A stretch of DNA of 64,000 nucleotides from Acidobacteriota bacterium (GCA_965217775.1 CBDCJH010000002.1:2720001-2784000); one strand, 5' to 3'. Positions 33,268 to 56,749 are shown, numbered from the stretch's first letter. The notes: generated from the sequence alone by a model not told the origin. Numbers and translations: made by a program.

Positions 33268-33576
33268 ATGAAGGAACCCAAGAAGGTCTTCCGGCCTCTG
33301 ACGGTTCAACAGTTCCGCGAATTGGTCGAGGCGGTGGACAACCCCTACCTGCAAGCCATGGTTGCGGTTATCGGCGGGACGGGGATTCGGAAAGGTGAAA
33401 CCTTGTCACTCACCTGGAAACGCGTGGACCTGAGTCGTCGGCTGCTGTGGGTGGAATTCACCAAGGACGACGAGGGAGATTCCGCAGTTCCCATGCGCTT
33501 GCCTGCATACGGGAGGCACAGGCGAACGAAGACACACAAACAAACCAGGCAACGGGTAGGAATCAGGGAGCAATGA
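33268..33576 (+). pseudogene. Tyrosine integrase fragment
   Basis: KEPKKVFRPLTVQQF...TGIRKGETLSLTWKRVDL..TKDD; matches the 51729-52562 integrase. Confidence 0.8.
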
Positions 33577-34975: not shown

Positions 34976-35212
34976 TCCGGGTTCGCTATCCCTAAGCCGG
35001 CGTCGCCGGAACCAAAATTTCTTCGCCGGAGCGGTGGCGTTCCAGTTCCCGGACCTTCAATTGGCCGCGTCTTGCTCCGCCTTGGATCGAAGAGGGCGCC
35101 CACAAGGGGCGCCCCTACGGAAAATTCTTCGTCCATTTGCACAAGATTTTGGATGTAAGGAACTATGAAATCTCATGCCGTTGCCGTCGCCTCCTCAGCT
35201 ACCTGAACCATC

Positions 35213-36709: not shown

Positions 36710-36813
36710 AGGTTCCCGATGAACTGTTGCTCGAAATCCTTAGCGACTTTGTGATTCCGGATGTTGTCCTCCAAATCACCTAGAGGTCGAATGGTAGACT
36801 TCGGCTCAGTAGC

Positions 36814-37623
36814 ATGATCAATCTGCACGAACGGTTGTCGGAATTTTCTTACGGATATGGAGTTACTCGTGAGGTGGAAAACCTACTCGCCAACGCGGGA
36901 TGTCATGTCACGCCGTTTCTCCCAAGTCTGGTGCACGAAGCGAAGCTTGGATTTGATGTAAGCTTTAAGGATCCTGGCTTTATTCTCATGCTGCAGTTTA
37001 AGTTGGGTCAAGAACTTCAGCGGTTTCGCCGCTCGAATCACTCACAAAGCATCCCACCGTTGACGAAGCCATTTTGGCGCTTCGAAATAGATACTTCGGC
37101 GCGCCAGTTTAATAACTTGGTGGAGTTCGAAAACGCCGATGCGCATGTCTATTACGTCGCGCCGCGTTTCTCTGACTGGGTAGCCTATGAACAGGCTTTC
37201 CAAACTAGTCGTGTGCTTCATGAATCACTGATACTTAGGCCATCTGAGATTTTGCGCGGCATTCAAGCGCAGATCGAAAACACAGATGTCCATCGGATTG
37301 TGTACGATGAGACAAACTGCTATTTCTGCTCTGAGTTGTTCAAACTTCGCAGTGTGAAACAGCGTGAGATTTTGGAAAATATAGTCGAGCGAACATCGGA
37401 CGAAACCCTAGAAGAGAGTATCCAACGTCTGTTTGATTGCCTACAAACTGATTCTCGCGGTGAGATCCCCCATGCGCAACAGTGGGAGTATCGCAAACAA
37501 CCCTATGATCGTTCCAGACCAGATGTCGGCGCCAGGGCAGCGATAGTCGGAATGGAGGTCTGGATCCGCGGTGCTCAGTTGGTCTTTGTCACTCAGTCCG
37601 CATCTTGGAGGATAAACCAATGA
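36814..37623 (+). CDS. Hypothetical protein, possible PD-(D/E)XK nuclease fold
   Basis: Lower GC than flanks; E..LGFDVSF......LQFK pattern. Confidence 0.45.
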   Translation: MINLHERLSEFSYGYGVTREVENLLANAGCHVTPFLPSLVHEAKLGFDVSFKDPGFILMLQFKLGQELQRFRRSNHSQSIPPLTKPFWRFEIDTSARQFNNLVEFENADAHVYYVAPRFSDWVAYEQAFQTSRVLHESLILRPSEILRGIQAQIENTDVHRIVYDETNCYFCSELFKLRSVKQREILENIVERTSDETLEESIQRLFDCLQTDSRGEIPHAQQWEYRKQPYDRSRPDVGARAAIVGMEVWIRGAQLVFVTQSASWRINQ

Positions 37624-37829
37624 ATCCCAGTCAAGTGGACCGCCTCAGTCCGACCAAAAATGAGGCGTTCAGCCTTTCCGCATGAGCGGTTTTCGCGACC
37701 GGGCCCCAAATACTCGAGTTAGGCGCTAGAAGGGGACAGTCACTTTCTCGCTCGTTCTTTGTCGACATGGGGGGCGTCTTTCCGGAACTGGGCAGGGGTC
37801 GAGAGGATTCCGGGAGCTTTCCTCACTCC

Positions 37830-38153
37830 TCACATCTCATCCTGCCTTTGCGGTATACGTGCGACCCAGTCTGCCCCAGCAAATGTGACCGCATAAATGA
37901 GCACCTCGCAGGCTTTGTCGTCGACCGTAAAGGCTACGACGGCTTTTCTCCCGGCAGGGATCGCCCGCAAACCGGGTGCTATTTCGTTACGGATGGATCC
38001 CGTGTGAGGAGTTTGTGCCAAGCCCGCGATGGTCCATTCAATCTCGGTCAGCGTCCGATCAGCCGCCACAGACCCCGCGTAATCGAGGACCCATTGGACG
38101 ATGTCTCGAAGATCACGTGCCACCAGCGGATGGAAACGGATGCGGTACGTCAC
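37830..38153 (-). CDS. ParE/RelE family toxin
   Basis: YRIRFHPLVARDLRDI...PHTGSIRNEIAPGLR. Confidence 0.85.
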   Translation of the reverse strand: MTYRIRFHPLVARDLRDIVQWVLDYAGSVAADRTLTEIEWTIAGLAQTPHTGSIRNEIAPGLRAIPAGRKAVVAFTVDDKACEVLIYAVTFAGADWVARIPQRQDEM

Positions 38154-38419
38154 GTCTTCGGATCAGTCCCAATAGTGGCGCGAGCGGTTGAGAAAGCGTG
38201 ATCCTGGTCCACGAACTCGGAACGCGGTGTCTGCATGCGCATGCGGATTTCTTCGGCCAGAGCCGAAAGCGCTACGTTTCGCTCGGTCTCGTCCTGCATC
38301 ATCCGTTCGATGGCAGCCGCCACCGCAGCGCTCCGAGTAGCAAACACGCCTTGGCCCACCTTCTCCGAAAGGTACCGATGGTGGCGATCCGTAAAGCTGA
38401 GGGTCGTTTTGACGGTCAT
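38150..38419 (-). CDS. ParD-like antitoxin
   Basis: MTVKTTLSFTDRHH...GVFATRSAAVAAAIE; overlaps the toxin start. Confidence 0.8.
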   Translation of the reverse strand: MTVKTTLSFTDRHHRYLSEKVGQGVFATRSAAVAAAIERMMQDETERNVALSALAEEIRMRMQTPRSEFVDQDHAFSTARATIGTDPKT

Positions 38420-38565
38420 CCGCACCTCCTTGGTATGACTGAGTCATATACCACTTCGGCGGATCCGGCTCAAGAGGAGGAGAATTCTTGGTCGGGGCGC
38501 CCTTTGTGGGGGCCCTCTTCGGTCCAAAACGGACTGTGCCGGGCGGCCCGAAGGCGAGATAATGA

Positions 38566-39945
38566 GTGATAATATCTACTGAAGGGAAGCGAGTGTCAGG
38601 ACTCTGCGTTTGCGAGTTGTTCGACTCCCGAGGGCGGCCGTTCCGCAACCGGACCGGGACCGGAGGGCTGCACCGCATCCGCTTTATCCTACCGTTGGCC
38701 GTTCTGGCCTTGGTCTCATGCGGCGGCGAGACTTCGAAACAGGCCTCCTCGGACTGCGTCGAGTGCCACCGCGACGTGACTCCCGGCATCGTCACGGACT
38801 GGGAGTTGAGCCGCCACCACGCCGCGGGAGTGGACTGTTCCCTCTGCCATGGCGACCAACATCGCACGGCGGAAGACGTGGCGCTGGTGAAGACCGCAAC
38901 CCCCGATGTCTGCGCCACCTGCCATCCGATTCAGACGGAGCAGTTCCAAGGGGGCAAGCACGCCCTTGCCTGGGTCAGCATGAACGCCATGCCCACGACG
39001 CATTGGCTCCCCATGGCCATGACCGAAGGCATGAAGGGCTGCGGCGGCTGCCATCGAGTCGGGCTCAAGAGCGAGGAAGAGATCCAGCAGTTGAAGGCCG
39101 ACGGCGTCATGTTCGGCTTGGCGTCGTGCGATACCTGCCACACCCGTCACCTCTTTTCCGTCAAGGAGGCTCGTGAACCCCAAGCCTGCCGGACCTGTCA
39201 CATGGGAATCGACCATCCTCAGTGGGAGATGTACTCCTCGTCCAAACACGGCGTCCGGCATCTGCTCAAGCAGACGGGGATCCTGCCGGAACAGGCGGCG
39301 GCACCCACCTGCCAGACGTGCCACATGCCGCAGGGAAATCACGAGGTGCGGACGGCCTGGGGATTCCTGGCGGTGCGGCTGCCCATGCCGGAGGATCAGG
39401 AGTGGGCGGCCGATCGAGCCACGATTCTCCAGGCCCTCGGCGTCTTGGACCCAGACGGTAAACCGACGCCCCGGTTGGAGGTGGTCAAGCAAGCCGATGT
39501 CGCCCGGCTGACTCAAGAGGATTGGCAACACGAGCGCGACCGCATGATCCGAATCTGCGAGCAGTGCCACTCGTCAAACCTGGTGAAAGCGGAGCTGAAA
39601 AAGGGCGATGAGATGATTCGGGAGACCGACCGGCTGCTGGCCGAGGCGATTCGCATCGTCGCTTCCCTCTACCGCGACGGCATCTTGCGGAAGCCGGACC
39701 ACTATGCCTACGACTACCCGGATCTGCTGGCTTTCCACGACGCCCCCTCGACCATCGAACAGCGCCTCTTCAAGATGCACCTGGAACACCGGATGCGCGC
39801 TTTTCAGGGAACGTTTCACAACAATCCGGACTACGCGCTCTGGTACGGTTGGAGCGAGATGCTGCAGGACTTGACCGAGATCAGGACGCTGGCGCAGGAG
39901 TTGCGCGGCAAGCACCAGCCGCCGGTGCGGAGTTCCGCCGAGTGA
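38566..39945 (+). CDS. Octaheme hydroxylamine oxidoreductase-family cytochrome c (start uncertain)
   Basis: Eight CxxCH motifs; CDTCHTRHLFS, CHMGIDHPQWEMYSSSKHG, HNNPDYALWYGW; LVSC lipobox. Confidence 0.85.
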   Translation: MIISTEGKRVSGLCVCELFDSRGRPFRNRTGTGGLHRIRFILPLAVLALVSCGGETSKQASSDCVECHRDVTPGIVTDWELSRHHAAGVDCSLCHGDQHRTAEDVALVKTATPDVCATCHPIQTEQFQGGKHALAWVSMNAMPTTHWLPMAMTEGMKGCGGCHRVGLKSEEEIQQLKADGVMFGLASCDTCHTRHLFSVKEAREPQACRTCHMGIDHPQWEMYSSSKHGVRHLLKQTGILPEQAAAPTCQTCHMPQGNHEVRTAWGFLAVRLPMPEDQEWAADRATILQALGVLDPDGKPTPRLEVVKQADVARLTQEDWQHERDRMIRICEQCHSSNLVKAELKKGDEMIRETDRLLAEAIRIVASLYRDGILRKPDHYAYDYPDLLAFHDAPSTIEQRLFKMHLEHRMRAFQGTFHNNPDYALWYGWSEMLQDLTEIRTLAQELRGKHQPPVRSSAE

Positions 39946-40559
39946 CGGGTGAAGTCATCATCCTAAGCGTCCTGGGGATCGCAGCCCTCGCGGTGATCGC
40001 GGCGCTCGTCCGCCGGCCCGAGTGGACCAACGCCGTCGGGGGCAAGATTCTCGCGTTTCTTGCACTCTTGGCTCTACCGGGGCTCTTGCTTGTGGGCGGA
40101 GCCGGCCGACACTACGAACAGGCCAAGACGACCAGCTTCTGTCTCTCCTGTCACGTCATTCAACCCTACGGAGAGAGCCTTTACATCGACCATCCGCGGT
40201 TCCTTCCCGCCGTTCACTACCAGAACAAGCTCATCCCCGCTGACAAGGCCTGCTACACGTGTCACACGAGTTACACCATGTTCGGGGACGTGGACGACAA
40301 GATCCGCGGCGTGAGGCACGTCTGGCACAGCGTGATGGGCTCCGCGTCCGATCCGGTGAAGCTCTATGCGCCGTTTGAGAACCGGGCCTGTCTGGAATGC
40401 CACGAAGGAGCCAGGTCCTACGAGGAAAACACGGTTCACGCACCGTTTCGGACCGAGCTGATCGCCGGCACGAAATCGTGTCTGATGTGTCACAACCTGA
40501 TTCACGAGGTCACGAAACTGGACCGGTTCGGGCGCTGGGACCCGGAGGCGACGCCATGA
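39942..40559 (+). CDS. NapC/NirT-family tetraheme membrane cytochrome
   Basis: N-terminal TM helices, TTSFCLSCH, CYTCH, CLECH, CLMCH; GTGA overlap with the upstream gene. Confidence 0.8.
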   Translation: MTGEVIILSVLGIAALAVIAALVRRPEWTNAVGGKILAFLALLALPGLLLVGGAGRHYEQAKTTSFCLSCHVIQPYGESLYIDHPRFLPAVHYQNKLIPADKACYTCHTSYTMFGDVDDKIRGVRHVWHSVMGSASDPVKLYAPFENRACLECHEGARSYEENTVHAPFRTELIAGTKSCLMCHNLIHEVTKLDRFGRWDPEATP

Positions 40560-40768
40560 GCCGGATTCGGTCGCTGGGTTTGCGGACTGGACTCGCCGGT
40601 CGCCTCCAAATCGCTGGATTGCTGATCGCGGCCGGGATCGTGGTGGAGTTGGGAACCTTGTTCTGGAACCATCCGATCTCCCTGTTCCTGTTCCTGACCT
40701 TGGGAGCGGGTCTGGTCGGAGCGGGCATGCTTCTCTACTTGTGGTCTGTCGTAACCCGGAGCGAGTGA
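40556..40768 (+). CDS. Small two-helix membrane protein
   Basis: ATGA overlap; hydrophobic. Confidence 0.6.
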   Translation: MSRIRSLGLRTGLAGRLQIAGLLIAAGIVVELGTLFWNHPISLFLFLTLGAGLVGAGMLLYLWSVVTRSE

Positions 40769-40877
40769 CGCCAATTGGAGCCGGACGGGTCCGGCCGCGC
40801 TCTCCGAGGACCGGATCACGCTTGATACGAACGCGGCAATCGAGCAGAGAGAAGGGGACAGTCACGTTTTCGCGCTC

Positions 40878-41150
40878 GGTCTCGCTCGGTCTGGGCTGGT
40901 CGTCTCGGGGGGAACACTGGGCCTCCTCGCCCCGGGATGGCTCTTTCCCATGGCCCCATCCAAGGGCGCCTACACCGGACTCGCCGTCTGCATGCTGTTC
41001 ACTCTGTGGGCCGCCCTGACCCGGGTGGTGATGCCCAACAGCCAGATCCCATTGCTGGATCCGGGCGCCTACAACTTTCTCTGGATACTCATGACCATCG
41101 GGACGATCGGACATGTCCTGGTTTTGGTGGTGGGCAATGCTACCAGCCGG
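40878..41150 (+). pseudogene. Diverged 3' fragment of the 35213-36709 symporter
   Basis: SKGAYTGLAVCMLFTLWAALTRV..PNSQ.PLLD...IGHVLVL matches ~36400-36670. Confidence 0.85.
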
Positions 41151-41168
41151 GGGACGGACGGCGCGGAT

Positions 41169-42167
41169 TCAGGCGCTCACTCGGACGGCCCGGCCGCTCG
41201 TGGCTGATTCTTCTGCGGCCTCGGCAACTCGCAGGGCGCGCCTCCCGTCATCGAAGCCGGGAGACGGCTTGACGCCTCGCTCTACGGCATCCACGAAGGC
41301 GTCGATCTCCCGAGTGAACGCTTCCTGGTACCGCTCGATGAAAAAGGGGTGCAGCCGGTCGCGGGCGGCGGTCCCACCTTCCGTGTAGCGTTCGACGCTG
41401 GTCCGAGTCGGATTGGCGGAGACCAGCATGCCGCGTTCTCCGAACAGCTCGATTCGCTGGTCGTAGCCAAAGGAACAATGGCGCGAGCAGTTGACGTGGC
41501 AGAGAGCGCCCGAGGCCATCCGCAAGACGACCATGGCGCTGTCCACGTCGCCGATTTCTCCGGCACGGGCGTCGAAGAGCACGCTTCCCATGGCCGTGAC
41601 CTCCACGGGCTCTTCGCCGAACAGGAAGCGTGCCACGTCGAAGTCGTGGACCATCATGTCCCGGAATATTCCACCGGAACCCTGAAGAAAGCGCAGGGGC
41701 GGCGGGAATGGATCCCGGCTGCTGATGACCGCCTGCTCCAGGCTGCCGAGCTCGCCGTTGCGGGCAGCCCGGGCCACCGCGCTGTGGCCAGGGTCGAAGC
41801 GCCGGTTGAATCCGATCTGAAACGGCACGCCGGTCTCCGCGAGAACTACTCCGCAGGCGTCCGCCCGCTTCATGTCCAGGTGGATCGGTTTTTCGCAGAA
41901 CACCGCCTTCCCGGCCCGCGCCGCGCCTTCGATCAGATCGCAGTGGGTGCTTGTGGAGGAGGAGATGCAAACGGCATCGAGGGTGGGGTCACCGAGCAGG
42001 GCGTCGACGGAATCGACGGAAACGGACCCGGTCTCAGTTGCGGCGGAGGTGGCGGCGTCAGCATCGACGTCGTAGACACTTGCGAGTTCCACACGGTTGT
42101 TTGCCGCGAGGATTCTTGCGCGCATCCGGCCGATCCTGCCGACTCCGAACAGTCCGAACTTGAGCAT
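41169..42167 (-). CDS. iolG: Inositol 2-dehydrogenase-like Gfo/Idh/MocA oxidoreductase
   Basis: GVGRIG, FCEKP, GFNRRFDP, SRDP, GGIFRDMMVHDFD, GYDQRIE. Confidence 0.8.
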   Translation of the reverse strand: MLKFGLFGVGRIGRMRARILAANNRVELASVYDVDADAATSAATETGSVSVDSVDALLGDPTLDAVCISSSTSTHCDLIEGAARAGKAVFCEKPIHLDMKRADACGVVLAETGVPFQIGFNRRFDPGHSAVARAARNGELGSLEQAVISSRDPFPPPLRFLQGSGGIFRDMMVHDFDVARFLFGEEPVEVTAMGSVLFDARAGEIGDVDSAMVVLRMASGALCHVNCSRHCSFGYDQRIELFGERGMLVSANPTRTSVERYTEGGTAARDRLHPFFIERYQEAFTREIDAFVDAVERGVKPSPGFDDGRRALRVAEAAEESATSGRAVRVSA

Positions 42168-42292
42168 GGAATTCTCCCTGGTTGCGTGACGACGTGGCGG
42201 GCGCTGATGTTGACACCCGGCTCAACTGCGCAGTCGAGTATACAAGTGAAGAGGGGGACAGGAATGTCCCCCCCTCCTATGTTTCCACAATG

Positions 42293-42305
42293 CACACATT
42301 GTGTG
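42293..42305. promoter_or_regulatory. Palindromic putative TA operator CACACA-T-TGTGTG (second copy at 49428-49440)
   Basis: Perfect inverted repeat just upstream of both BrnT-like operons. Confidence 0.55.
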
Positions 42306-42316
42306 ATGATTGACTT

Positions 42317-42604
42317 ATGAGCGACAGTTTCGACTGGAGCACGGAGAAGAATCAAAGACTCGTCGAGCAGCGAGGAATCTCATTCGAGAGCGTCGTCTCC
42401 GCCATAGAGCAAGGTGGCTTGTTGGACGTACGGGAGCACCCGAACCATGATCGCTATCCGGGACAGTTGATCTATGTCGTGGAATCCGACGGGTACATTC
42501 ATCTTGTACCTCTTGAGACGCAGGCTGACGGCACTCGTTTTCTGAAGACGATTATTCCCAGCCGAAAGGCGACGAATGCTTACCGGAGGAGGCAGCCATC
42601 GTGA
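42317..42604 (+). CDS. BrnT-like toxin
   Basis: FDWSTEKNQRL..RGISFE...HPN...FLKTIIPSRKAT. Confidence 0.85.
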   Translation: MSDSFDWSTEKNQRLVEQRGISFESVVSAIEQGGLLDVREHPNHDRYPGQLIYVVESDGYIHLVPLETQADGTRFLKTIIPSRKATNAYRRRQPS

Positions 42605-42903
42605 ACGACAAATTGAGCGTCGAAGAACGCGACATTCTCGACCGATTCGAGCGGGGTGACTTGCGCTCCGCTCCTGGTGCTGAACGCGAAGTTGAGGTGG
42701 CTCGTCAGGCGGCTCGTAATACGTTCAACAAAACCAAGCGAGTGAATCTGCGGGTAACCGAGCGCGACTTCAAACTCGCTCACTCGCGGGCCAGGGAAGA
42801 AGGGATTCCCTATCAAACACTGCTGTCCAGTGTTATCCACAAATACTTGGCCGGCCGGCTGACCGAAAAGAGGTTGCCTTACATCACGGCGCGGGAGAAG
42901 TAG
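42601..42903 (+). CDS. CopG/BrnA-like antitoxin
   Basis: KRVNLRV...AREEGIPYQTLLSSVIHKY. Confidence 0.85.
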   Translation: MNDKLSVEERDILDRFERGDLRSAPGAEREVEVARQAARNTFNKTKRVNLRVTERDFKLAHSRAREEGIPYQTLLSSVIHKYLAGRLTEKRLPYITAREK

Positions 42904-42924
42904 CCCGTCCCTTTCTCAGTCCGG

Positions 42925-43242
42925 CTAACGAATCACGTCCACCTTTAGGCGCAACCCCTCCTGTTTCTGGAGGAAACCGATGATTCGGAACAGGTTTCGG
43001 GCTTGGGGGTTGCCTTTGGGACCGAACATCCGCATCAGGCTCTTGGGAGATTTCTCGGTCAGTCCGCCAAGCGCCTGAAAGCCGATCGTGGCGTTGATGT
43101 AATCGCGTAGTACTGCCTTCCCCGTATCCACGTCATCCGAAAGGAGGCACTCAATCCCTTCCTTGAGCAGCTCTCCGCGGAACTCCGGATCGCTCTCGAT
43201 GCGCGCCTGAATCGTTTCCTTGAAGTCTCGTGTCAATGGCAT
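42925..43242 (-). CDS. Addiction-module antidote HTH protein; cognate toxin reduced to an N-terminal stub (MIEIREYLDTEGRSP, ~43285-43332)
   Basis: MPLTRDFKETIQAR...LRDYINATIGF..KSLMRMFGPKGNP. Confidence 0.8.
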   Translation of the reverse strand: MPLTRDFKETIQARIESDPEFRGELLKEGIECLLSDDVDTGKAVLRDYINATIGFQALGGLTEKSPKSLMRMFGPKGNPQARNLFRIIGFLQKQEGLRLKVDVIR

Positions 43243-43475
43243 GGTTTTCAGGTCTCCGGTCGTTTGCGCCGCCGGTATTCTTGACGGACTACGGCCCTCG
43301 GTGTCCAGGTACTCTCTGATCTCAATCATCACTTCATGGTGCCTGATATGTTACCATCGACAAGTAGCCTGGAGTCAAGATTCTTGCCTGGTCGGAAGAG
43401 GTAGACTGTCCCTTTTTCGTTCCCAAAGACCCTGTCGGCAAAGATGTGATCCAATGCCTCCACAGTAGGCCGTCG

Positions 43476-44891
43476 ATGTCAGGTGCAGCAGGATCGTTGA
43501 GCAGACCACTTGTTGCGAGCGTTCTCGCACTTACCCTGGCTTGTGCCGCGTGCGGTGAACCGGCTGAGGTTCTTGTGGGCAAGGAGCTTCTTGTCCTCGA
43601 AGGGGCCACTCTGATTGACGGAACCGGTGCCGGACCGCGCGAGGACAGCGTCATCGTGGTGGACGGCGACCGAATCATCAGGGTCGGAAGCGCGGGTGAT
43701 TTCCATTTCCCCGACTCGGCACGGCAAAGAGACGTTTCGGGCCACTTCGTGCTGCCGGGATTCATCGACATGCATGTCCATGTTCACCCCAAGGCTCGGA
43801 TCGAGACCGTGGAGGCGTTGCTTGAGTTCGGAGTGACCACGATACGCAGCCCGGGCGCCGCGCAAAGCGCCGGAGTCGAGCTCCGGGATCAGATCGAGGC
43901 GGGCCGGGTTCGGGGGCCGCGGATGATGACCGGCGCCGCCTTCATCGACGGTTCTCCGAGCCGATTCGACTGGACGGTGCCCGTGGCGACACCGGATGAG
44001 ATCCGGGACGTGGTTCGACAACAGGCTGCGGCGGGTGCCGACATGATCAAGCTGTACTGGGACGTGACCCCGGAGCTGACGGCCGCTGCGATTGAAGAGG
44101 CCCACAAGCTCGGTCTGAGGGTCGCCGGCCACCTCCGGGCGACGAGCTGGACCCAGGCGGCAAGACTGGGAATCGATGCCCTGGTCCACAGCGGTGCAGA
44201 GGGACCGACCTGGGAGCTGGTCCCCGAAAGGCACCGGGCCCAACTGAGGGCGCTGCCCTACCCGGAGTTCTACGCCCGTTGGCTCGAGTTGGTGGAGCTT
44301 GACGGCGATCTGATGAGTTCCTTGATTACTGCCCTCGTTGACAACAACGTGACGGTCGACCCGACTCTGGTCGTGATGGAGAGCCTCTACTTCGGTGACG
44401 ACCCGAAGGTTCTCGAGCGGCTCGAGCCGCAGCGGGCTCCGTCCTCGGTGGTCTCGCTTTGGGGTTCGGACTGGCGGCAGCGAAACCCGTTTGTTTTCAC
44501 CAACCCCATGGGAATCGCTCGGGACTTCACGTCCGGCAAGCCCGTATTCCCCGTCGCACTCCAGATCGTGCGGAGGCTTCATGAGGGGGGAGTGAGGCTG
44601 ACCGCAGGGAGCGACCTGGGAATGCCCTGGATCACGCCGGGCGTGAGCCTGCATCGGGAGCTAGAGCTCCTGGTCCAGGCCGGCATCGACGAGGCTGACG
44701 TGATCGTCATGGCGACCCGAAACGGCGCCGAGGGCCTGGGTCTGGAGGATCAGCTCGGAACCGTCGAAGCAGGGAAACTGGCCGACCTGGTCGTGCTCTC
44801 GGCGGATCCACTGTTGGACATCCGCAACACCCGCTCGGTGGCCGCCGTCTACAAGGCTGGCGAACTCCAGTATCAAGCCACGCCACTTTGA
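43476..44891 (+). CDS. Amidohydrolase family lipoprotein (copy 1)
   Basis: LPGFIDMHVH, GVTTIR, GSD, GKLADLVVL. Confidence 0.9.
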   Translation: MSGAAGSLSRPLVASVLALTLACAACGEPAEVLVGKELLVLEGATLIDGTGAGPREDSVIVVDGDRIIRVGSAGDFHFPDSARQRDVSGHFVLPGFIDMHVHVHPKARIETVEALLEFGVTTIRSPGAAQSAGVELRDQIEAGRVRGPRMMTGAAFIDGSPSRFDWTVPVATPDEIRDVVRQQAAAGADMIKLYWDVTPELTAAAIEEAHKLGLRVAGHLRATSWTQAARLGIDALVHSGAEGPTWELVPERHRAQLRALPYPEFYARWLELVELDGDLMSSLITALVDNNVTVDPTLVVMESLYFGDDPKVLERLEPQRAPSSVVSLWGSDWRQRNPFVFTNPMGIARDFTSGKPVFPVALQIVRRLHEGGVRLTAGSDLGMPWITPGVSLHRELELLVQAGIDEADVIVMATRNGAEGLGLEDQLGTVEAGKLADLVVLSADPLLDIRNTRSVAAVYKAGELQYQATPL

Positions 44892-44926
44892 AACGGGCGC
44901 TGATGGTGATGCCCGGTAGAAAAAGG

Positions 44927-45046
44927 GTAGGAGCGGCGGTTTCCTAACCGCCGGCTTCCGGAGTGTCCGGGAACGAACGCGTATCGTGGGCGACGGGTTA
45001 TCGCCCTTCCTTTTTCTTAGAGGGGGACAGGAATGTCCCCCCTCCT
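44927..45046. repeat. REP cluster between convergent amidohydrolase and sialidase-like genes
   Basis: GTAGGAGCGGCGGTTTCCTAACCGCC and GGGGGACAGGAATGTCCCCCCTCCTAC. Confidence 0.8.
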
Positions 45047-46019
45047 ACCGGACGGCCAGCTTCGCAATCGGGATTCGCAGGAAGAACAAACCCGGTCCTC
45101 CCTCCTGATCTTTGTCGATGTCGTAAAAGACCACGCCGATTGTTTTATCGTCGAGTTGCACCGTTCGGGGACAGGCCCGGCCGTTGATCGCCCGGCCCGG
45201 GTTGTAGTACTCAAACACGCCATCCCATGTCTGCCCGTCGTCGTATGAAAGACGATAGCGGATGCGCTCCCCGCCAAAGCCGGGCCCGAGAATCTCCGAG
45301 GCCAGCAGCCAGCCGTTTTTCAGACCGACCATTTCGTGCCGCCAGCCCTGCGAGCTGATGTCCGGAAAGCCTTCGATGGTCTTCCACGTCTTGCCGTTGT
45401 CCGTTGATCGGATGCCGGCGCCGCTGACGAACGTGCCTCTCGGAGTCTGCACAATCGGGATCAACCCATGCATACGGCCATCGCCGAACGGTGTTGCTTT
45501 GGAAGTGGCCGGATCAAACACGAACGTCCGGTCTATCAACGACACGAGCCATTGCTCTGACTTCAGTTCGGTAATGGGGTGCCGGATGACGGATCTGACT
45601 TCGGGATCACGCGGGAATGGCTGCGGGTCGCTCCACGATACTCCGTCGTCATTCGACAGTGAGTACAAGACAGACCGTGGTTCTTTCTGAGTGACCGGCG
45701 TATCCCAGCGGTTCCAGCAATGCAACAGGCGGCCGTCGCTCAGTGTCGTCAGCGAGCCCGGGTAATACGTCTTATCGACGGTATGGACGAACGGCACAGG
45801 TTCGGACCATTTCATTCCTCCGTCCGACGATCGAGTGATGCGCAGGTCCACGTGATTCACCCGCCCGTACGTCACAACGATCGTCCCCGAGCGGGTGACA
45901 CAGGCCGCCGGGTGAATGTGCCCGTCGACCGGGACAGCAACCCGGACCGGTTTCAGTTGATGGTCGCTCGCGACGACCGTTGACACAGCGAATAAAGACA
46001 GCACGGCGAGTCGGTTCAT
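45045..46019 (-). CDS. Sialidase-family (BNR/Asp-box) secreted protein (copy 1)
   Basis: SSDGGMKW, SNDDGVSW, STDNGKTW, SYDDGQTW Asp boxes. Confidence 0.8.
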   Translation of the reverse strand: MNRLAVLSLFAVSTVVASDHQLKPVRVAVPVDGHIHPAACVTRSGTIVVTYGRVNHVDLRITRSSDGGMKWSEPVPFVHTVDKTYYPGSLTTLSDGRLLHCWNRWDTPVTQKEPRSVLYSLSNDDGVSWSDPQPFPRDPEVRSVIRHPITELKSEQWLVSLIDRTFVFDPATSKATPFGDGRMHGLIPIVQTPRGTFVSGAGIRSTDNGKTWKTIEGFPDISSQGWRHEMVGLKNGWLLASEILGPGFGGERIRYRLSYDDGQTWDGVFEYYNPGRAINGRACPRTVQLDDKTIGVVFYDIDKDQEGGPGLFFLRIPIAKLAVR

Positions 46020-46139
46020 CAGATGTCTCCAGATGTTGAACAGGGGATCCTTTGCAAAGAGATTAACTCAGTCGCTACCGAATAAGGAGGTCGACGCCGC
46101 CAATTGCATGGCATTCTCATCCACCTTCTTGATCATTTT

Positions 46140-46445
46140 TCACCCGCTCACTCGGACGGCGCGGCCGGTCCTGGCGGATTCTTCCGCGGCGTCGGCAAGC
46201 AGCAATGCGCGCCTCCCGTCGTCGAAGCCGGGCGTCGGCGGGATGCCGTTCTCGACGGCATCGACGAAGGCGTCGATCTCGCGCACGTACGATTCCTCGT
46301 ACCGCTCGATGAAGAAAGGGTGCAGGCGGTCGCGGGCAGCGGTCCCGTCAGCCGTGTAGCGTTCGACGTTGGTCCGAGTCGGATTCGCGGAAATGAGCAT
46401 CCCGCGTTCTCCGAACAGCTCGATTCGCTGGTCGTAGCCAAAGGC
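46140..46445 (-). pseudogene. 3' fragment of an iolG-like gene
   Basis: Nearly identical to 60225-60530; truncated about 10 bp from the 46455 motif. Confidence 0.88.
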
Positions 46446-46547
46446 GAAAGGACCGGGAGAAGTAGACTGTCCCTTTCTCCGTCATCGGTAAGAACAGGTG
46501 GCGATCGTGGACTATCATTGAAGGACCACCCTATAACGTTATAGGAT

Positions 46548-46898
46548 ATGGACATGAAACAGCCCATCCCGCCCGGAGAGATTTTGCTCGAGGAGTACCT
46601 CAAACCGATGGGGATTTCACAGAATGCCATGGCCCGAGCCATCGGTGTCTCCCCAAGGGCGGTTAACGAAATCGTCCTTGGCCGCCGGTCGATCACTCCG
46701 CCCATGTCGATTCGTTTTGGCGCCTTCTTTGGTCAGTCGGACAAGTTCTGGCATGGCATCCAAGTCGAGTGCGACTTCCGCAAGCTGGCAGGGGACAGGA
46801 ACCGACTGATTGCCGACATTAAACCGGCTGCGGCCGTGGCGGCCCGTGCCGAGAGCCGCCACGGCGCTCGACCGACGCTGCAATCCGGAAGCGCGTAA
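46548..46898 (+). CDS. higA: HigA family antitoxin (orphan)
   Basis: [26 protein letters not shown]...FW..Q. Confidence 0.85.
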
Positions 46899-47195
46899 CG
46901 ACAGGTGGGCCCAATCGTCACCGCGACCCTTTGACGCTTGGACCAGCGCTACAGCGTCAAATTTTCGTGGATCCAACGCCCGAAGCCCAGACGCGTCACG
47001 TGGCTTCTGCGTAGCTGATATCCAGAAAGATCTGGTGGACCACGACCGGGTCCTGGTCGCGGGAGAAGTAGACTGTCTCTTCCTCCGTCCGGCCCGACGG
47101 GGAATGGTAGCGTCCGGTCGCTGGGTGGCGCCAAGCACCGAGGACGTGCATCTCTTCCTGGTTCAGAGAGCACGCATAACGCCAAGTGGCGTCGA

Positions 47196-47795
47196 TCACG
47201 CCAGCAGTTCGTCCATGAGATCGTCAATGAACATATGCGACCAACAGGCGTTACGAAGTTCCTGCCCCTGCGGACGGATATGCGCGTGAATCACACGAGT
47301 ATTTGTGCGATTCTGAACAAGTTCCACCGCAGGCACGAAATCCGCGTCGGCGCTGATGAGGATCGCTTCACCAAACAGGTCGTCGAGCGCCGCTTGAATC
47401 AGGTCCGTGGCAAGCGCCGTATCTACACCCTTCTCGACGGTGCCCCGAAGTACACGTCCACAATGCGGGCACTTGTGCAGGGGTTTTCGACACCCTGGGT
47501 GCTGGCAAGTGTACGGTCCGCGCGGCTTTCGCTCTTTGATGGTGACGCGATAGCCGGGGAAGCCGTTCATCGCGTGGAGGAAGCGGCGGAGGCCGGCGTC
47601 TGCTGGGTTGCGGGGATCGACTGACGCATAGACATGACATCCGGTGTAAACCGCTTCGCCACCCCGATGACGTGTGAGCACATCGGGCAACTTGGCTTTC
47701 CAGGGTATCTGTGGGCGTCCTTGGCCCTTACCTTGGTGGAAACTGTTCCAGGCGATCTGTAGGTTCCAGAAATCCACCAGGATTCGTACACGCAT
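47196..47795 (-). CDS. NYN-domain (LabA/DUF88-like) nuclease with zinc-ribbon insert
   Basis: ILVDFWN, CQHPGC...CPHC, EKGVDTALATD, ISADADFVPAV. Confidence 0.88.
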   Translation of the reverse strand: MRVRILVDFWNLQIAWNSFHQGKGQGRPQIPWKAKLPDVLTRHRGGEAVYTGCHVYASVDPRNPADAGLRRFLHAMNGFPGYRVTIKERKPRGPYTCQHPGCRKPLHKCPHCGRVLRGTVEKGVDTALATDLIQAALDDLFGEAILISADADFVPAVELVQNRTNTRVIHAHIRPQGQELRNACWSHMFIDDLMDELLA

Positions 47796-47804
47796 GGACG
47801 CCTC

Positions 47805-47836
47805 AAAAAAAACAGGGAGCCGATTCCGGCTCCCTG
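47805..47836 (-). terminator. Intrinsic terminator immediately upstream of the NYN start codon
   Basis: CAGGGAGCCG-GAAT-CGGCTCCCTG followed by T8. Confidence 0.8.
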
Positions 47837-47885
47837 GGGTCATAAAGCCCGGCAGCGATGCCGCCGGGGGGGTGTAACACACTCG

Positions 47886-47914
47886 AATGTACGCGTGGCT
47901 CGACACCAAGTCAA
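47886..47914 (-). promoter_or_regulatory. Sigma70-like promoter
   Basis: TTGACT-N17-TACATT. Confidence 0.7.
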
Positions 47915-48072
47915 TCTGACCGCAGCTGGACTTCCCCGATTTTTTTCACGGTCAGGAGAATAGGGGAAGCAAGTTTCGACGAGGGTCGGATCGAGGCGGC
48001 CCGGTGCCCGTGTTCCGGCCAAACAAGAGCTGCTTGATCCGATCCGCAGAGCTCAACGACGCCCGTGAGAAA

Positions 48073-48906
48073 CTACTTCCGGGCCAGTGCCCACGTCTTC
48101 TGCGTGTATGTGACGTAGCTCACGGGGGTCCTGCAAGTCTTGCAGATCGCTCCCCGTTTCCTGACGTCGCGTTTGATGGCCCAGCCGCACGTGATGCACC
48201 GCGCGATATAGCGAGGAGGGGCAAATTCCACTGCGTGGCAGCGGTCGCCGGTGCATCCGACCGAACGCGCGACTGCCTTCCAGGCGGCGTCATGATTATG
48301 CTTGGGGCCGACCAGGGCGTGCGCGATCTCGTGGAGAATCGTGTCCCTGACTTGCGGGCCGGTGGCGTGCAGGCAATAGAGGCGGGAAAGTCCAATGACC
48401 TTGAGGCCGAAAACGCAGACTCCCGCCCGCTTCGAGGTATCCTCGAACTGAAAGCTCCATCCCGTGAGTCCGTGCCGGCTCATCAACCGCTCCGCCTCCG
48501 CCGCAACTTCGGCCAATCTCCGGCCATCGTTGCGATCAGGATTCCGTCCGGCTGGTATCAGCAGACCATACGGAACGTAGTAGCTACCGTGCTCCGTGGC
48601 GACCAGGGCGCGCTTGGGTCCGAGACGCGAGAGGACGCCTTCGAGCGTGCCCCGGCCGTGCGGGACCAGGACCTCGTCATCCGGGCGGAATCGGGCTTTG
48701 AACCGGTCCCGCCTCAGAGTCACTCGCCTCCTACGTCCGCCTTCGTCACGAGCGAGGAAGCCCCACGGCACACCGTAGTCGGTGCCGTCCTCTCCCACGA
48801 TTTCGGCTTTCCGAGGAGTCTTGCGTGCGATGTGCCCACTGATCCAGACACCCTGGTCCCGGAATTTCACGGGATCATGAATGCAGAACTGCGCGGCGCT
48901 AGACAC
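48073..48906 (-). CDS. SprT-like zinc metalloprotease (start uncertain)
   Basis: RAGVC, DTILHEIAHALVG..HNHD..WK, two CxxC motifs. Confidence 0.85.
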   Translation of the reverse strand: MSSAAQFCIHDPVKFRDQGVWISGHIARKTPRKAEIVGEDGTDYGVPWGFLARDEGGRRRRVTLRRDRFKARFRPDDEVLVPHGRGTLEGVLSRLGPKRALVATEHGSYYVPYGLLIPAGRNPDRNDGRRLAEVAAEAERLMSRHGLTGWSFQFEDTSKRAGVCVFGLKVIGLSRLYCLHATGPQVRDTILHEIAHALVGPKHNHDAAWKAVARSVGCTGDRCHAVEFAPPRYIARCITCGWAIKRDVRKRGAICKTCRTPVSYVTYTQKTWALARK

Positions 48907-49451
48907 TGTCCGAACTCACAAAATGATTTGCCGCGCCCTGCCCGGGAGCCGAGTCGTCACAGAGGACGAAGGACCGGCGTCCCTCTGAGAGACGGGACCA
49001 AGAACAGGATCAGCCCGGACCGTCTTCTTTGAATCCGGAACCGAAACCGGGGCTGCGCCCGCCGGACAAGGCACTCTTGGGAGCATACCGAAAGTATATG
49101 ACCGAGGAGCAACGCGTCTCCGCCGGGATGCGTGGAATGGGTCCAGCCGCGCATTCGAATTCCGTAGGGGCGCCCCTTGTGGGTGCCCTCTTCGGCCCGA
49201 ACCAACACAGACCCGGTCGGCCGCCGGGACATGGCGTGGGAGTCACGGGGTGGCCTCTGGGCGATCTCGGTTGCCTGTACTGGGATGGCAACCACAAGGG
49301 TTGCCCCTACCAACGGGAAGCCATCCCACCGGACGGGGGAAGTAGACTGCCCCTCTCTCGTTCCCACCGAAGTTGTCGATTGCCGCCTTTGCGGAGTCGT
49401 CTGGCTCTGGGGCGTGTTTCCGAAATGCACACATTGTGTGATTATTGACTC

Positions 49452-49739
49452 ATGAGCGCCAGTTTCGACTGGAGCACGGAGAAGAATCAAAGACTCATCG
49501 AGCAGCGAGGAATCTCAGTCGAGAGCGCCGTCTCCGCCATAGAGCAAGGCGGCTTGTTGGATGTACTGGAGCACCCGAACCAGGATCGCTACCCGGGACA
49601 GTTGATCTACGTCGTGGAATCCGACGAGTACATTTTTCTTGTACCTTTTGTGACGCAGGCCGACGGCACTCGTTTTCTGAAGACGATTGTTCCCAGCCGA
49701 AAGGCGACGAAAGCTTACCGGAGGAGGCAGCCATCGTGA
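49452..49739 (+). CDS. BrnT-like toxin (copy 2)
   Basis: Close paralog of 42317-42604. Confidence 0.85.
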   Translation: MSASFDWSTEKNQRLIEQRGISVESAVSAIEQGGLLDVLEHPNQDRYPGQLIYVVESDEYIFLVPFVTQADGTRFLKTIVPSRKATKAYRRRQPS

Positions 49740-50011
49740 ACGACAAATTGAGCACCGAAGAGCGCGACATTCTCGACCGATTCGAGCGGGGTGACTTGCG
49801 CTCCGCTCCTGGTGCTGAACGCGAAGTTGAGGTGGCCCGTCAGGCGGCTCGCAATACGTTCAACAAATCCAAGCGAGTGAATCTGCGGGTAACCGAGCGC
49901 GACTTCAAACTCGCTCACTCGCGGGCCAGGGAAGAAGGAATTCCCTATCAAACACTGCTGTCCAGTGTTATCCACAAATACCTGGCCGGCCGCCTGACCG
50001 AAAAGAGGTAG
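49736..50011 (+). CDS. CopG/BrnA-like antitoxin (copy 2)
   Basis: Close paralog of 42601-42903. Confidence 0.85.
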   Translation: MNDKLSTEERDILDRFERGDLRSAPGAEREVEVARQAARNTFNKSKRVNLRVTERDFKLAHSRAREEGIPYQTLLSSVIHKYLAGRLTEKR

Positions 50012-50084
50012 TCGGACATCACGATGTGCGCGAGAAATGGTGACGTTCGATGGGTCCGTCGGCTCCGTACTCCGTAGTCCGTCG

Positions 50085-51497
50085 ATGTCAGGAGCAGCAG
50101 GATTGCTGAGCAGACCTTCTATTGCGATCGCTCTCGCACTTACGCTGGCTTGTGCCGCGTGCGGTGAACCAGCCGAGGTGCTTGTGGGCGAGCGGCTTCT
50201 TGTCCTGGAAGGAGCCACTCTGATTGACGGCACCGGCACCGAACCGCGCGAGGACAGTGCCATCGTGGTGGACGGCGACCGAATCCTCAGGGTCGGCAAC
50301 ACCGGTGAATTCCATTTCCCCGACACGGCACGACGAAGAGAGGTTTCGGGCCACTTCGTGCTTCCAGGATTCATCGACATGCATGTCCATGTTCACCCCG
50401 AGGCTCGGATCGAGACCGTGGAGGCGTTGCTCGAGTTCGGAGTGACCACGATACGCAGCCCGGGCGCCGCTCAAAGCGCCGGCGTCGAGCTCCGGGATCA
50501 GATCGAGGCGGGCCAGGTTCGCGGTCCGCGGATGATTAGCGGCGCCGCTTTCATCAACGGGTCTCCTCGATTCGATTGGACGGTAGCCGTGGAGACGCCG
50601 GATGAGATCCGGGACGTGGTTCGACAACAGGCTGCGGCGGGCGCAGACATGATCAAGCTGTACTGGGACGTGACCCCGGAGCTGATGGCCGCTGCCATCG
50701 AAGAGGCCCACAGGCTGGGTCTGACGGTCGCCGGCCACCTTCGGGCAACGAGCTGGACCCAGGCGGCGCGAATGGGAATCGACGCCTTGCTCCACAGCGG
50801 CGCGGAAGGGCCGACCTGGGAGCTGGTCCCCGAAAGGTACCGGGCCCTACTGCGGGCACTACCCTATCGGGAGTTCTACGCCCGTTGGATCGAGTTGGTG
50901 GAGCTGGACGGCGAACTGATGAGCTCCTTGATCGCCGCTCTCGTTGCCAACAACGTGACGGTCGACCCGACTCTGGTCGCGATGGAAAGCCTCCACTTCG
51001 GTGACGACCCTAAGGTTCTCGAACGGCTCGAGCCTCAGCGGGCTCCGCCCGCGGTCGTCTCGCTTTGGGGTCCGGATTGGCAGGAGCGAAACCCGTTCGT
51101 CTTCACCAACCCGATGGGAGTCGTGCGGAACCTCACGTCCGGCAAGGACGTATTCCCCGTCGCACTCCAGATCGTGCGGAGGCTTCACGAGGGGGGAGTG
51201 AGGCTGACTGCAGGAACCGACGTGGGAACGCCCTGGATCACGCCGGGCGTGAGCCTGCATCGGGAGCTGGAGCTTCTGGTTCAGGCCGGCATCGACGAGG
51301 CTGACGTGATCGTCACGGCGACCCGAAACGGCGCCGAGGGCCTGGGTCTGGAGGACAGGCTCGGAACCGTCGAAGCCGGGAACCTGGCCGACCTGGTCGT
51401 ACTCTCGGCGGATCCGCTGTCGGACATCCGCAACACCCGTTCGGTGACCTCCGTTTACAAGGCCGGCGAACTCGTGTATCCGGCCGCGCCACCTTGA
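50085..51497 (+). CDS. Amidohydrolase family lipoprotein (copy 2)
   Basis: Close paralog of 43476-44891. Confidence 0.9.
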   Translation: MSGAAGLLSRPSIAIALALTLACAACGEPAEVLVGERLLVLEGATLIDGTGTEPREDSAIVVDGDRILRVGNTGEFHFPDTARRREVSGHFVLPGFIDMHVHVHPEARIETVEALLEFGVTTIRSPGAAQSAGVELRDQIEAGQVRGPRMISGAAFINGSPRFDWTVAVETPDEIRDVVRQQAAAGADMIKLYWDVTPELMAAAIEEAHRLGLTVAGHLRATSWTQAARMGIDALLHSGAEGPTWELVPERYRALLRALPYREFYARWIELVELDGELMSSLIAALVANNVTVDPTLVAMESLHFGDDPKVLERLEPQRAPPAVVSLWGPDWQERNPFVFTNPMGVVRNLTSGKDVFPVALQIVRRLHEGGVRLTAGTDVGTPWITPGVSLHRELELLVQAGIDEADVIVTATRNGAEGLGLEDRLGTVEAGNLADLVVLSADPLSDIRNTRSVTSVYKAGELVYPAAPP

Positions 51498-51728
51498 AAC
51501 GGGCGCTTATGGTGACACCCGGTAGAAAAAGGGCAAGCGGCGGTTTCCAACCGCCGAACTCCGGTGGAGCATTGAGGAATGGGCGACTGGAAGTCCGTTG
51601 CTCCGTCCAACTGAGATAAGGTATAGATCCTTTATTTTCAACAGTTTATCCCATTTCTTAGGTCTAATCACTTTCCCTTTTTTGCTGCCCGTTGCCGGTT
51701 TGTTGCCTGTTGCGTTTGTGAGTCTTCG

Positions 51729-54080: not shown

Positions 54081-54194
54081 GGGGAAGAGGAAGGGAGTGG
54101 CGCGATTTTATGAAGTCCTTCTTGTCCAAGAGCTCCATCGCATTTTCGAAGAGGGCCTTGTCCGGTGCGATGGTCTCCTCCCGGAGTTCCGCCC

Positions 54195-56748: not shown

Positions 56749-56749
56749 G

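Follow-up and report, generated by a model that had tools for sequence, protein, structure and literature searches.

What are the short directional sites that separate one accessory gene module from the next in a variable bacterial locus, and has an enzyme acted on them? The question is raised by a 64-kb stretch of DNA from an Acidobacteriota bacterium (positions 2720001-2784000 of contig C2; hereafter the window), in which seven sites of 25 bp stand among toxin-antitoxin (TA) genes, a cytochrome operon and duplicated fragments of other genes. The genome, which we call G000, measures 6.43 Mb and has a second contig of 144 kb (C1). An earlier note, made from the sequence alone, had taken the sites for recombination or nicking sites of a gene-capture system, possibly integron-like, whose enzyme acts in trans.

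The answer that we put forward comes from a different family of elements. Genes that resemble those for REP-associated tyrosine transposases (RAYTs; REP, repetitive extragenic palindromic) can be flanked by terminal inverted repeats (TIRs); such genes have been named TIRYTs, and the units that they form with their repeats TIRtrons (Di Nocera, De Gregorio & Rocco 2013; PMC3733652). The motif of the seven sites forms the ends of a TIRtron family in this genome. At a probability of about 0.75, we read the sites as orphan (solo) copies of that TIR, which now lie at the joints of exchanged accessory modules.

The sites and their genome-wide family

The pattern GAGAAGTAGACTGTCCCYTT, taken from the earlier note and searched with 0-3 mismatches, has six matches in the window, at 37730 (minus strand), 42895, 43396, 46457, 47063 and 49337; in 100 dinucleotide-preserving shuffles of the window the expected number was 0.00. 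The seventh site, CGAAAACGTGACTGTCCCCTTCTCT, was confirmed by eye and by a position weight matrix. This matrix, 25 nucleotides long and built from copies throughout the genome, returns exactly seven sites in the 64 kb, two on the minus strand followed by five on the plus strand. All are singlets, spaced at least 500 bp apart. They are listed here with a half-site that lies further along:

37726-37750, minus: solo TIR-like site CGAGAAAGTGACTGTCCCCTTCTAG (pattern and matrix), between a 1-kb stretch specific to G000 and the parDE/cytochrome module
40848-40872, minus: solo site CGAAAACGTGACTGTCCCCTTCTCT (matrix), after a NapC/NirT-type cytochrome gene; kept at the same place in the related genome G006
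42894-42918, plus: decayed solo site GGAGAAGTAGCCCGTCCCTTTCTCA (pattern and matrix), overlapping the stop codon of a BrnA-like gene
43395-43419, plus: solo site GAAGAGGTAGACTGTCCCTTTTTCG (pattern and matrix), upstream of an amidohydrolase gene
46456-46480, plus: best copy GGAGAAGTAGACTGTCCCTTTCTCC (pattern and matrix), joining a duplicated BNR and GFO fragment to higA
47062-47086, plus: solo site GGAGAAGTAGACTGTCTCTTCCTCC (pattern and matrix), between higA and the NYN/SprT module
49336-49360, plus: solo site GGGGAAGTAGACTGCCCCTCTCTCG (pattern and matrix), between SprT and the second BrnT/BrnA copy
50032-50044, plus: half-site GAGAAATGGTGAC, comprising the left arm alone, where the paralogous BrnTA block meets the paralogous amidohydrolase block

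The seven directional sites that the earlier note described are thus all present, and its best copy, GGAGAA-N13-TTCTCC, is read as such at 46456-46480. The note had also advised that a matrix be built and scanned; besides the same seven sites, the scan brings out a family that extends through the genome, and this does not fit the note's picture of a capture system specific to the locus, since the motif has 253 copies genome-wide.

The repeat is a near-palindrome of 25 bp with the consensus AGAGAAGGTGAC-T-GTCCCCTTCTCT, as given by an iterated matrix. One half, GACTGTCCCCTTCTC, is conserved, the opposite strand reading GAGAAGGGGACAGTC. The other arm is variable and takes forms such as GAGAAGGTGAC, GAGAAGTAGAC, GAAAAATAGAC, GAAAAACAGAC and GGAATCGAGAC, the letters ending in the central GAC being GTAGAC, GGTGAC, ATAGAC, ACAGAC or CGAGAC. 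The 9-mer core GACTGTCCC occurs 255 times in the genome, against 42-84 times for five control 9-mers (one-letter changes and one rearranged order). With a threshold of 16 bits, the iterated matrix yields 448 strand-hits, and the reversed genome yields 5. The 448 reduce to 253 distinct sites. The matrix turned palindromic on iteration, and orientation was assigned from the asymmetric core.

How are these copies placed? They are dispersed over 78 clusters. Most (178 of 253) fall in 26 clusters of at least four, usually with one arm variant and one orientation per cluster; by eye on the list of sites, orientation is a property of the cluster and not of the replichore. As judged with a crude codon-usage gene caller, 368 of the 448 hits (~82%) are intergenic, though ~86% of the genome was called coding. 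The intergenic hits lie between tandem (216), convergent (84) or divergent (68) genes, with both site orientations equal in each class. This lack of preference for a gene direction argues against a promoter, an operator or a terminator. When ten site-bearing strands were folded as single strands, none did better than its shuffles (z from -1.06 to +1.08; for the best strand, at -1.06, 25 of 200 shuffles folded at least as well), in line with a TIR and not a REP. No Rfam family was found; the sole match (E 0.12), to an archaeal snoRNA model inside brnT, we take as chance.

Arrays outside the window hold small open reading frames (ORFs) of no known family, TumE-like and MazF-like toxins, helix-turn-helix (HTH) proteins and GFO paralogues. 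Whole arrays with their flanks are common to C1 and the chromosome at 89-99% identity (C1:66085-68346 and C1:122729-128583 against C2:5225270-5227569 and C2:5168908-5175032). Half-sites also occur in tandem, for example GAGAAGGGGAC-N6-GAGAAGGGGAC, or as GGAATCGAGAC repeated without the other half beside TIRtron ends (C2:1203006/1203023, 3908780, 3015370 and 1818637). The second half is missing in 43 of 154 occurrences of the conserved arm, some of them probably by chance.

A RAYT-like gene family bounded by the motif

Which gene belongs to the repeat? A Pfam search for Y1_Tnp found three genes in the genome. One of them, C2:2626206-2627141 (311 amino acids), has two motif copies 244-278 bp upstream and two 206-255 bp downstream, all facing outward. 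With its protein as query, G000 yields 12 matches: 11 of full length at 83-100% identity, one of these with a TAG stop, and one fragment. At all 11 full-length paralogues a motif copy faces outward 110-280 bp upstream, and at no fewer than six a GGAATCGAGACTGTCCCTTTCCG-type copy faces outward ~150-260 bp downstream. Alignments of the flanks show that the similarity among paralogue copies extends out to the motif and ends there, on both sides. The same arrangement holds in other genomes, where the upstream copy has the same orientation at 50 of 50 loci and the downstream copy at 36 of 50; at two of these loci the palindromic matrix placed the upstream copy on the opposite strand, but along the gene strand it reads GGGGACAGTC, and at two the downstream flank was missing. 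Arms close to the variants of the window occur among these true ends, as GAAGAAGTAAAC in genome G023 and AAAGAAAGTGAC in contig L067.

The earlier note had suggested looking for a gene of the HUH or RAYT type, and it is this RAYT-like Y1 family, with the motif at both ends, that the search brought to light. The note had also set its proposal against a motif that is simply the end of a known insertion sequence (IS) or miniature inverted-repeat transposable element (MITE); the motif is essentially such an end, the TIR of a TIRtron. The window itself holds no TIRYT gene. The closest copies are C2:2626206-2627141, ~94 kb upstream, and C2:2873633-2874562, ~90 kb downstream. Any enzyme therefore has to work in trans, as the note had supposed; the likely enzyme is encoded outside the window.

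The 311-residue protein scores 37.3 bits against PF01797 (Y1_Tnp; cut-off 23), and some of its database homologues bear the name 'REP element-mobilizing transposase RayT'. The HUH histidines H63 and H65 (GNHFH) and the tyrosine Y162 (YVELNAVRAG) do not vary among 22 homologues, which range from 51 to 100% in identity. An AlphaFold2 model has a mean predicted local distance difference test score (pLDDT) of 72.5, good for residues 10-220 and low for 223-262. Its top Foldseek match is 4ER8, the E. coli RAYT with a REP hairpin (E 4.7e-6), followed by the IS200, IS608 and ISDra2 transposases. A sequence search of the PDB gave no match at E of 0.01 or less, so that the link to RAYT is made by the fold search only. 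In residues 180-311 Pfam finds nothing even at E of 10 or less, and this C-terminal part is conserved in the homologues. The other two Y1_Tnp genes of G000, C2:5635244-5635945 and C2:4665597-4666268, were rejected as cognate enzymes on finding no motif copy within 6 kb. They too are RAYT-like, with 233 and 223 amino acids and 70 and 78 bits against the NCBIfam model REP_Tyr_transpos, just under its cut-off.

Repeat and gene also occur together between genomes. Among 31 genomes searched at the level of the order, the exact 15-mer GACTGTCCCCTTCTC has 4-55 copies in all nine members of the genus (G000-G008) and in G023, which belongs to another family; the other 21, six of them from a sister genus, have 0-1. 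A homologue of the 311-residue protein at 73% identity or more is found in exactly those ten genomes, the other 21 having one at 58% or less, or none. The ten represent two independent lineages, not ten. In G023 there are two identical TIRYT copies, each with motif-bearing ends, which suggests that gene and repeat arrived there jointly by horizontal transfer. Most of the 55 exact copies of G023 stand in a few dense arrays at C1:1.42-1.49 Mb of that genome, spaced ~25-210 bp apart, beside one TIRYT gene. Against the 12 matches of G000, 2-11 are found in congeners and 4-12 per genome in relatives. In two cases a TIRYT unit is inverted between its inverted repeats, with the outer flanks matching in swapped order: C2:2873633 of G000 against L077 (G001), and C2:3907385 against L062 (G006).

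Modules between the sites

If the sites are old transposon ends, why do they stand between modules? Our comparison across species concerns one locus, in G000 and its eight congeners. The locus is syntenic in all eight, and its conserved genes are those for the symporter, the cytochrome operon, the GFO oxidoreductase, the amidohydrolase and the BNR protein. The modules between these genes differ, which agrees with the earlier note's view of directional sites that recur at module boundaries. From the GFO gene to the amidohydrolase gene the genomes carry:

G000: brnTA-site-ORF135-site
G006: site-site-ORF
G003: other genes, then SprT-site
G002 and G005: longer arrays, with SprT, a 292-amino-acid gene, higA and brnTA and co-oriented sites between them

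Single sites can be seen with exchanged neighbours. In G003 the left flank of window site 49336 continues into another right flank; in G002 its right flank is preceded by another left one. At L031:12691 of G003, one site unites the left flank of 49336 (SprT) with the right flank of 43395 (amidohydrolase). At L033:16938 of G002, a site joins higA to brnT, where G000 reads higA-site-NYN-SprT-site-brnT. The left flank of 43395 is kept beside a site in five relatives, and the right neighbour is another one in G005 and G008. In G006, a segment made up of a site, the cytochrome operon and a second site lies between two copies of a ~450-bp stretch formed from the 3' ends of the symporter and GFO genes.

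With breakpoints defined as the ends of BLAST alignments, a homology breakpoint is found no more than 12 bp from six of the seven window sites, against a mean of 2.2 for random intergenic points (P ~0.006); at a tolerance of 5 bp it is four of seven (P 0.07). Site 47062 is the only one without a breakpoint within 60 bp, the nearest being 108 bp away. A second test took the two 150-bp flanks of a point and called continuity broken when they were not adjacent, or not both present, in the other genome. Over eight loci this was so in 140 of 165 informative comparisons at sites. For intergenic control points, each 80 bp or more away from any site, the count was 906 of 2776, and for points within genes 214 of 3067. 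Both flanks were present and apart in 25 of 165 comparisons at sites, against 64 of 2776 at the intergenic controls; all these comparisons are among kin and not independent. The earlier note's test of whether sites coincide with synteny breakpoints therefore comes out in its favour as regards enrichment over intergenic points of the same locus, with the reservation that part of the signal stems from insertion and decay of the sites themselves.

Comparison with empty sites reveals clean indels of ~55-85 bp that carry a site; no target-site duplication was seen in three such comparisons, a small sample. At two indels the boundary comes precisely behind the central GAC. One sets the half-site AGAGAAGGCGAC of G008 against a full site and 44 further bp in G004; the other is GAGAAATGGTGAC at 50032-50044 in the window, where homology to the copy at 42.9 kb stops inside the half-site. 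Genes truncated at the 5' end abut the variable arm in the same geometry in three of three cases (window 40881 and 46444, and L033:13831 of G002), a tiny sample.

Four public runs, viewed as Logan contigs, bear on the same locus; in three, 51-61% of the words sampled from 41000-50000 are present, and in the fourth 28%. On 36500-52500, their contigs contain the joints 36678>37724, 37753>38187 and 41311>37743, each in three of the four runs. The first two abut both edges of site 37726-37750, and the alternative joints at this site match arrangements of G006 and G004. Two apparent site-to-site joints, 42275>46454 and 46481>49339, were not counted: their sides are 24-26 letters long and consist of the repeat itself. 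In the stretch from SprT to site 49336 (49040-49290) the summed contig depth is ~1355-1519 in all four runs, against ~50-140 in neighbouring bins, with many alternative joints and loose ends; this is probably another high-copy small repeat or MITE.

What do the modules contain? Family searches of the window ORFs place ParE at 37830-38153 (minus), adjoined by a weak match to ParD, and identify multihaem and NapC/NirT cytochromes, a GFO/IDH/MocA oxidoreductase, an amidohydrolase, a BNR-repeat protein, HigA (TIGR02607, 88 bits) and NYN and SprT-like genes. The cargo that the earlier note had named (parDE with the cytochromes, higA, and NYN with SprT) is accordingly found, with ParD weak. A BrnT-like/BrnA-like pair matches Pfam weakly, under the gathering cut-offs, and a second BrnT/BrnA pair and a second amidohydrolase follow further along the window.

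On self-comparison the window is a patchwork of duplicated segments. Position by position, 42280-42888 matches 49415-50023 at 94% identity and 43465-44953 matches 50074-51556 at 90%. The ends of duplications lie 6-12 bp from sites 40848, 42894 and 46456 and 50-60 bp from 43395 and 49336. Three segments next to sites deserve separate mention:

40881-41154, plus: 3' fragment of a sodium:solute symporter gene, starting 9 bp from a site; the full gene is at 35213-36709 (Pfam)
42889-43464, strand not assigned: 576-bp stretch with two direct sites and a 135-amino-acid ORF (42925-43332, minus); the paralogous block has 50 bp instead
46139-46444, minus: 3' fragment of a GFO/IDH/MocA gene, ending 11-12 bp from site 46456

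By self-BLAST, the symporter fragment matches 36403-36677, the 3' end of the full gene, at 86.5% identity, and the GFO fragment matches 41168-41473, the 3' end of the GFO/IDH/MocA gene 41169-42167, at 85%. The fragments of host genes that the earlier note had seen beside two of the sites are therefore real. A longer segment that holds the GFO fragment, 45056-46445, matches 59141-60530 at 94.6% and ends 11-12 bp from the site. A second block of BNR, GFO (420 amino acids) and an ORF135-like gene lies at 59133-61932, with 99% identity over the last 190 bp, and on sequence similarity it is the apparent source of the BNR and GFO 3' fragment at 45056-46445. A 35-bp segment, 49160-49194, matches 35088-35122 inverted at 97%.

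The note had also stated that an antidote gene is absent from the second block. Material is indeed missing there, the 576 bp being replaced by 50 bp; but the ORF between sites 42895 and 43395 has no family match, so the label 'antidote' is unverified, and the BrnA-like antitoxin frame is open in both blocks.

Explanations, precedents and meaning

How might transposon ends have come to lie at these joints? We suggest that a TIRYT acting in trans seeded short TIR-bearing units, ~45-85 bp long, into intergenic DNA. Segmental duplication would then have multiplied modules of a gene and a site locally, which we propose as the reason why the sites of one array share variant and orientation. The dispersed copies would now be preferred joints for the insertion, loss, duplication and re-ordering of accessory modules: TA pairs, SprT/NYN, the cytochrome operon and gene fragments. 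Gene capture by one-ended events is possible. The identity of the motif with TIRtron ends, the enzyme family, its co-occurrence with the motif, the intergenic dispersal of the sites and their enrichment at breakpoints are observed; we infer from them that TIRYT, rather than host homologous or illegitimate recombination, may cut and join at the sites.

Several observations weigh against this account. The best NCBIfam model for the protein, 'REP-associated tyrosine transposase' (REP_Tyr_transpos), gives 50.7 bits, under the cut-off of 80. No TIRYT of G000 has exactly the window arm GAGAAGTAGAC; the nearest true TIRs are GAAGAAGTAAAC in G023 and AGAGAAATAGAC at C2:2873633. TIRYT paralogues within a genome are only 83-92% identical, hence old copies, and 34 of 59 TIRYT copies, including four of the 11 in G000, have a positional orthologue in another species. 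This divergence and positional orthology argue for rare activity or none at present, and on such comparisons the TIRYT units appear to be mostly old and resident. Several window sites are likewise ancient and fixed in place across species; the site at 42894 has orthologues in G008 and G004 and a decayed one in G001. Some of the breakpoint signal must be produced by the sites themselves, whose insertion or decay ends BLAST alignments. Plain segmental duplication explains much of the array structure, since modules of gene and site were duplicated locally and site flanks often have another copy of at least 120 bp in the genome (230 of 506, against 169 of 800 control intergenic flanks). Finally, the two apparent site-to-site joints in the contigs of the public runs consist of the repeat alone and are no evidence of cutting, circles or transposition.

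Much of this would also be expected if the sites were passive, REP-like relics of TIRtron ends, perhaps with a host role such as protein binding, and no exchange specific to an enzyme took place. They would then mark junctions because they have built up in dispensable, duplication-rich DNA, in which short repeats undergo RecA-dependent or illegitimate recombination. The fixed sites and the diverged, often positionally orthologous TIRYT paralogues favour such a history, as do arrays duplicated as blocks, including those shared by the plasmid C1 and the chromosome. Intergenic control points of the locus, too, are often broken (33%), and the conserved flank has no clear polarity (61 against 37, in comparisons that are not independent). 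Passive marking accounts poorly, however, for split junctions that are ~6 times commoner at sites than at other intergenic points of the locus. The breaks fall inside a 25-bp element or within 12 bp of it, and this element is short and mismatched for efficient homologous recombination. Nor does it predict the two boundaries exactly after GAC or the clean indels that carry a site. We consider it rather unlikely that the sites are passive throughout. It is far less likely that they are regulatory DNA, bound by a dimeric transcription factor or acting as a promoter or terminator common to accessory operons. The dyad symmetry is typical of operators, most hits are intergenic, and sites often adjoin HTH or TA genes; yet they prefer neither divergent nor upstream positions, offer no T-run or stable hairpin for termination, define the ends of TIRtron homology and are inserted or absent as short indels between species. 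A promoter or terminator was rejected for want of any bias in orientation or position.

An integron-like array, with attC-like sites used by an integrase or a XerD-like enzyme, is the least credible of the explanations that we weighed. Co-oriented sites do alternate with small accessory and TA genes, here and in other clusters, and the window contains tyrosine-recombinase fragments at 33298-33516 and 51729-52562. But no integron integrase was found, the top score that any part of the genome reaches against TIGR02249 being 80.6 bits, under the cut-off of 265; sites of 25 bp that fold no better than shuffles lack the architecture of attC, a bulged hairpin of 57-141 bp (R''-L''/L'-R'); they have no fixed relation to gene direction; and over the genome as a whole the motif goes with Y1/HUH genes and not with integrases. 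The integrase-like fragment at 51.6-52.0 kb is part of a separate multi-copy repeat. With no IntI over the cut-off, no attC-like fold and no Rfam family, we rejected this explanation. The earlier note was right in seeing neither attC nor intI, and its integron-like system falls away. Its candidate enzymes, XerD-like remnants at ~54200 and ~56750, fare no better: PF00589 matches in the window only at 33298-33516 and 51779-51847, and five ORFs of the 52.9-56.9-kb region (52956-54080, 53878-54315, 54586-55116, 55094-55690 and 56642-56923) match no Pfam family. The gene at 51729-52562 (minus, 277 amino acids) is integrase-like, with only N-terminal SAM-like integrase domains and a short PF00589 remnant. 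A ~420-bp stretch, 51581-52000, which comprises its 5' part and the region upstream, occurs in dozens of copies (80-90% identity) in G004 and G005, with several in G000, G006 and G007. It looks like a multi-copy tyrosine-recombinase element, truncated here.

Could the copies be working sites today? In a stronger form of the proposal they would serve TIRYT-driven exchange of cassettes, a single-stranded DNA (HUH) counterpart of the integron. A segment flanked by co-oriented sites on both sides, or by a site on one side and a pseudo-site within a gene on the other, could be excised and rejoined at another site, with the cut at or near the central GAC|T, as the two half-site junctions suggest. 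Variable arrays of TA and accessory genes would result, and so would 5'-truncated gene fragments abutting the variable arm. We hold this to be a tentative idea, and on present evidence an unlikely one. Solo copies of the TIR at the joints of exchanged modules remain our preferred reading.

How does this family compare with those already described? In published accounts, many TIRtron repeats carry GGGGWSAS, and some TIR families are dispersed, moderately abundant and 'organized as REPs in dimers or clusters'; among TIRYT groups, the one from Acidobacteria is delimited most sharply (PMC3733652). Most TIRYTs belong to TnpA-Y1 subclass 2.1, whose proteins are long, with a C-terminal HTH (or DnaA_C-like) domain, and have no REP-like hairpins nearby; copy numbers in class 2 are low, except in subclass 2.3, with more than 5 diverged copies per genome (Quentin et al. 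2018; PMC6006769). Bertels et al. 2017 (PMC5581495) describe the groups into which RAYTs fall and note that their copy numbers are low.

The present family agrees with these descriptions in most respects. A RAYT-like Y1/HUH gene is enclosed by inverted repeats that form no stable hairpin; the conserved half contains GGGGACAG, a match to GGGGWSAS; TIR copies are dispersed singly, in pairs or in clusters; and the protein, at 311 residues, is longer than classical RAYTs, from a phylum with a reported TIRYT group. It differs in its numbers, with 11 full-length paralogues against the one to three genes described (three in K. versatilis), a copy number like that reported for subclass 2.3, and with ~250 solo repeats whose arm variants are specific to clusters. 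A Pfam search of the C-terminal 130 residues gave no HTH or DnaA_C match, and the tyrosine motif is Y---NA instead of Y---NP. The parts of the published accounts on which we draw make no mention of repeats at the cassette junctions of a hypervariable locus.

REP and REPIN systems (REPtrons, REPs, bacterial interspersed mosaic elements (BIMEs) and REPINs) are covered by Nunvar 2010 (PMC2817692), Bertels & Rainey 2011 (PMC3116915) and Messing 2012 (PMC3479197). The family studied here shares with them short extragenic repeats in hundreds of copies, a cognate Y1 gene with inverted copies, mostly vertical inheritance and a predicted fold nearest to the E. coli RAYT 4ER8. It lacks their stable imperfect palindrome of 20-40 nucleotides, its strands folding no better than shuffles, and their conserved GTAG/CGTC tag, GTAG occurring only in the arm variant of the window. 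The window has singlets and not the inverted doublets of REPINs, and the enzyme gene is multi-copy. A narrow search of the literature on RAYTs, REPINs and REP-associated transposases found no paper on this genus; we do not claim novelty.

Chromosomal integron arrays, and clusters of attC sites lacking integrases (CALINs), consist of co-oriented short sites that alternate with small accessory and TA genes, and their content varies between close relatives. In these respects the locus resembles them. It departs from them in having no IntI, 25-bp sites without attC architecture, no fixed gene orientation and 78 clusters in place of one platform. Elements of the IS200/IS605 group and their non-autonomous derivatives, the palindrome-associated transposable elements (PATEs), have direct subterminal hairpins and are near-identical multi-copy elements that transpose as units. 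The TIRYT shares their Y1/HUH catalytic fold, 2A6M and 2XM3 being among its structural matches, and by analogy a mechanism is conceivable in which paired co-oriented ends define an excisable single-strand segment. The ends here are inverted, though; copies are 83-92% identical and many (34 of 59) are positionally orthologous; and no tnpB was seen beside the TIRYT copies.

TIRYT genes and TIRtrons have been described, but without a demonstrated activity or biological role. This genus offers a rich case, with 11 paralogous enzyme genes, ~250 end-repeats and eight related genomes, complete or nearly so, in which the repeats stand where accessory modules have been shuffled. If TIRYT is indeed active at the sites, it would provide a new way of exchanging gene cassettes, in a phylum that does not lend itself readily to genetic work. 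Should it be inactive there, the repeats still mark zones of plasticity, and they warn against reading co-oriented intergenic repeats as integron-like.

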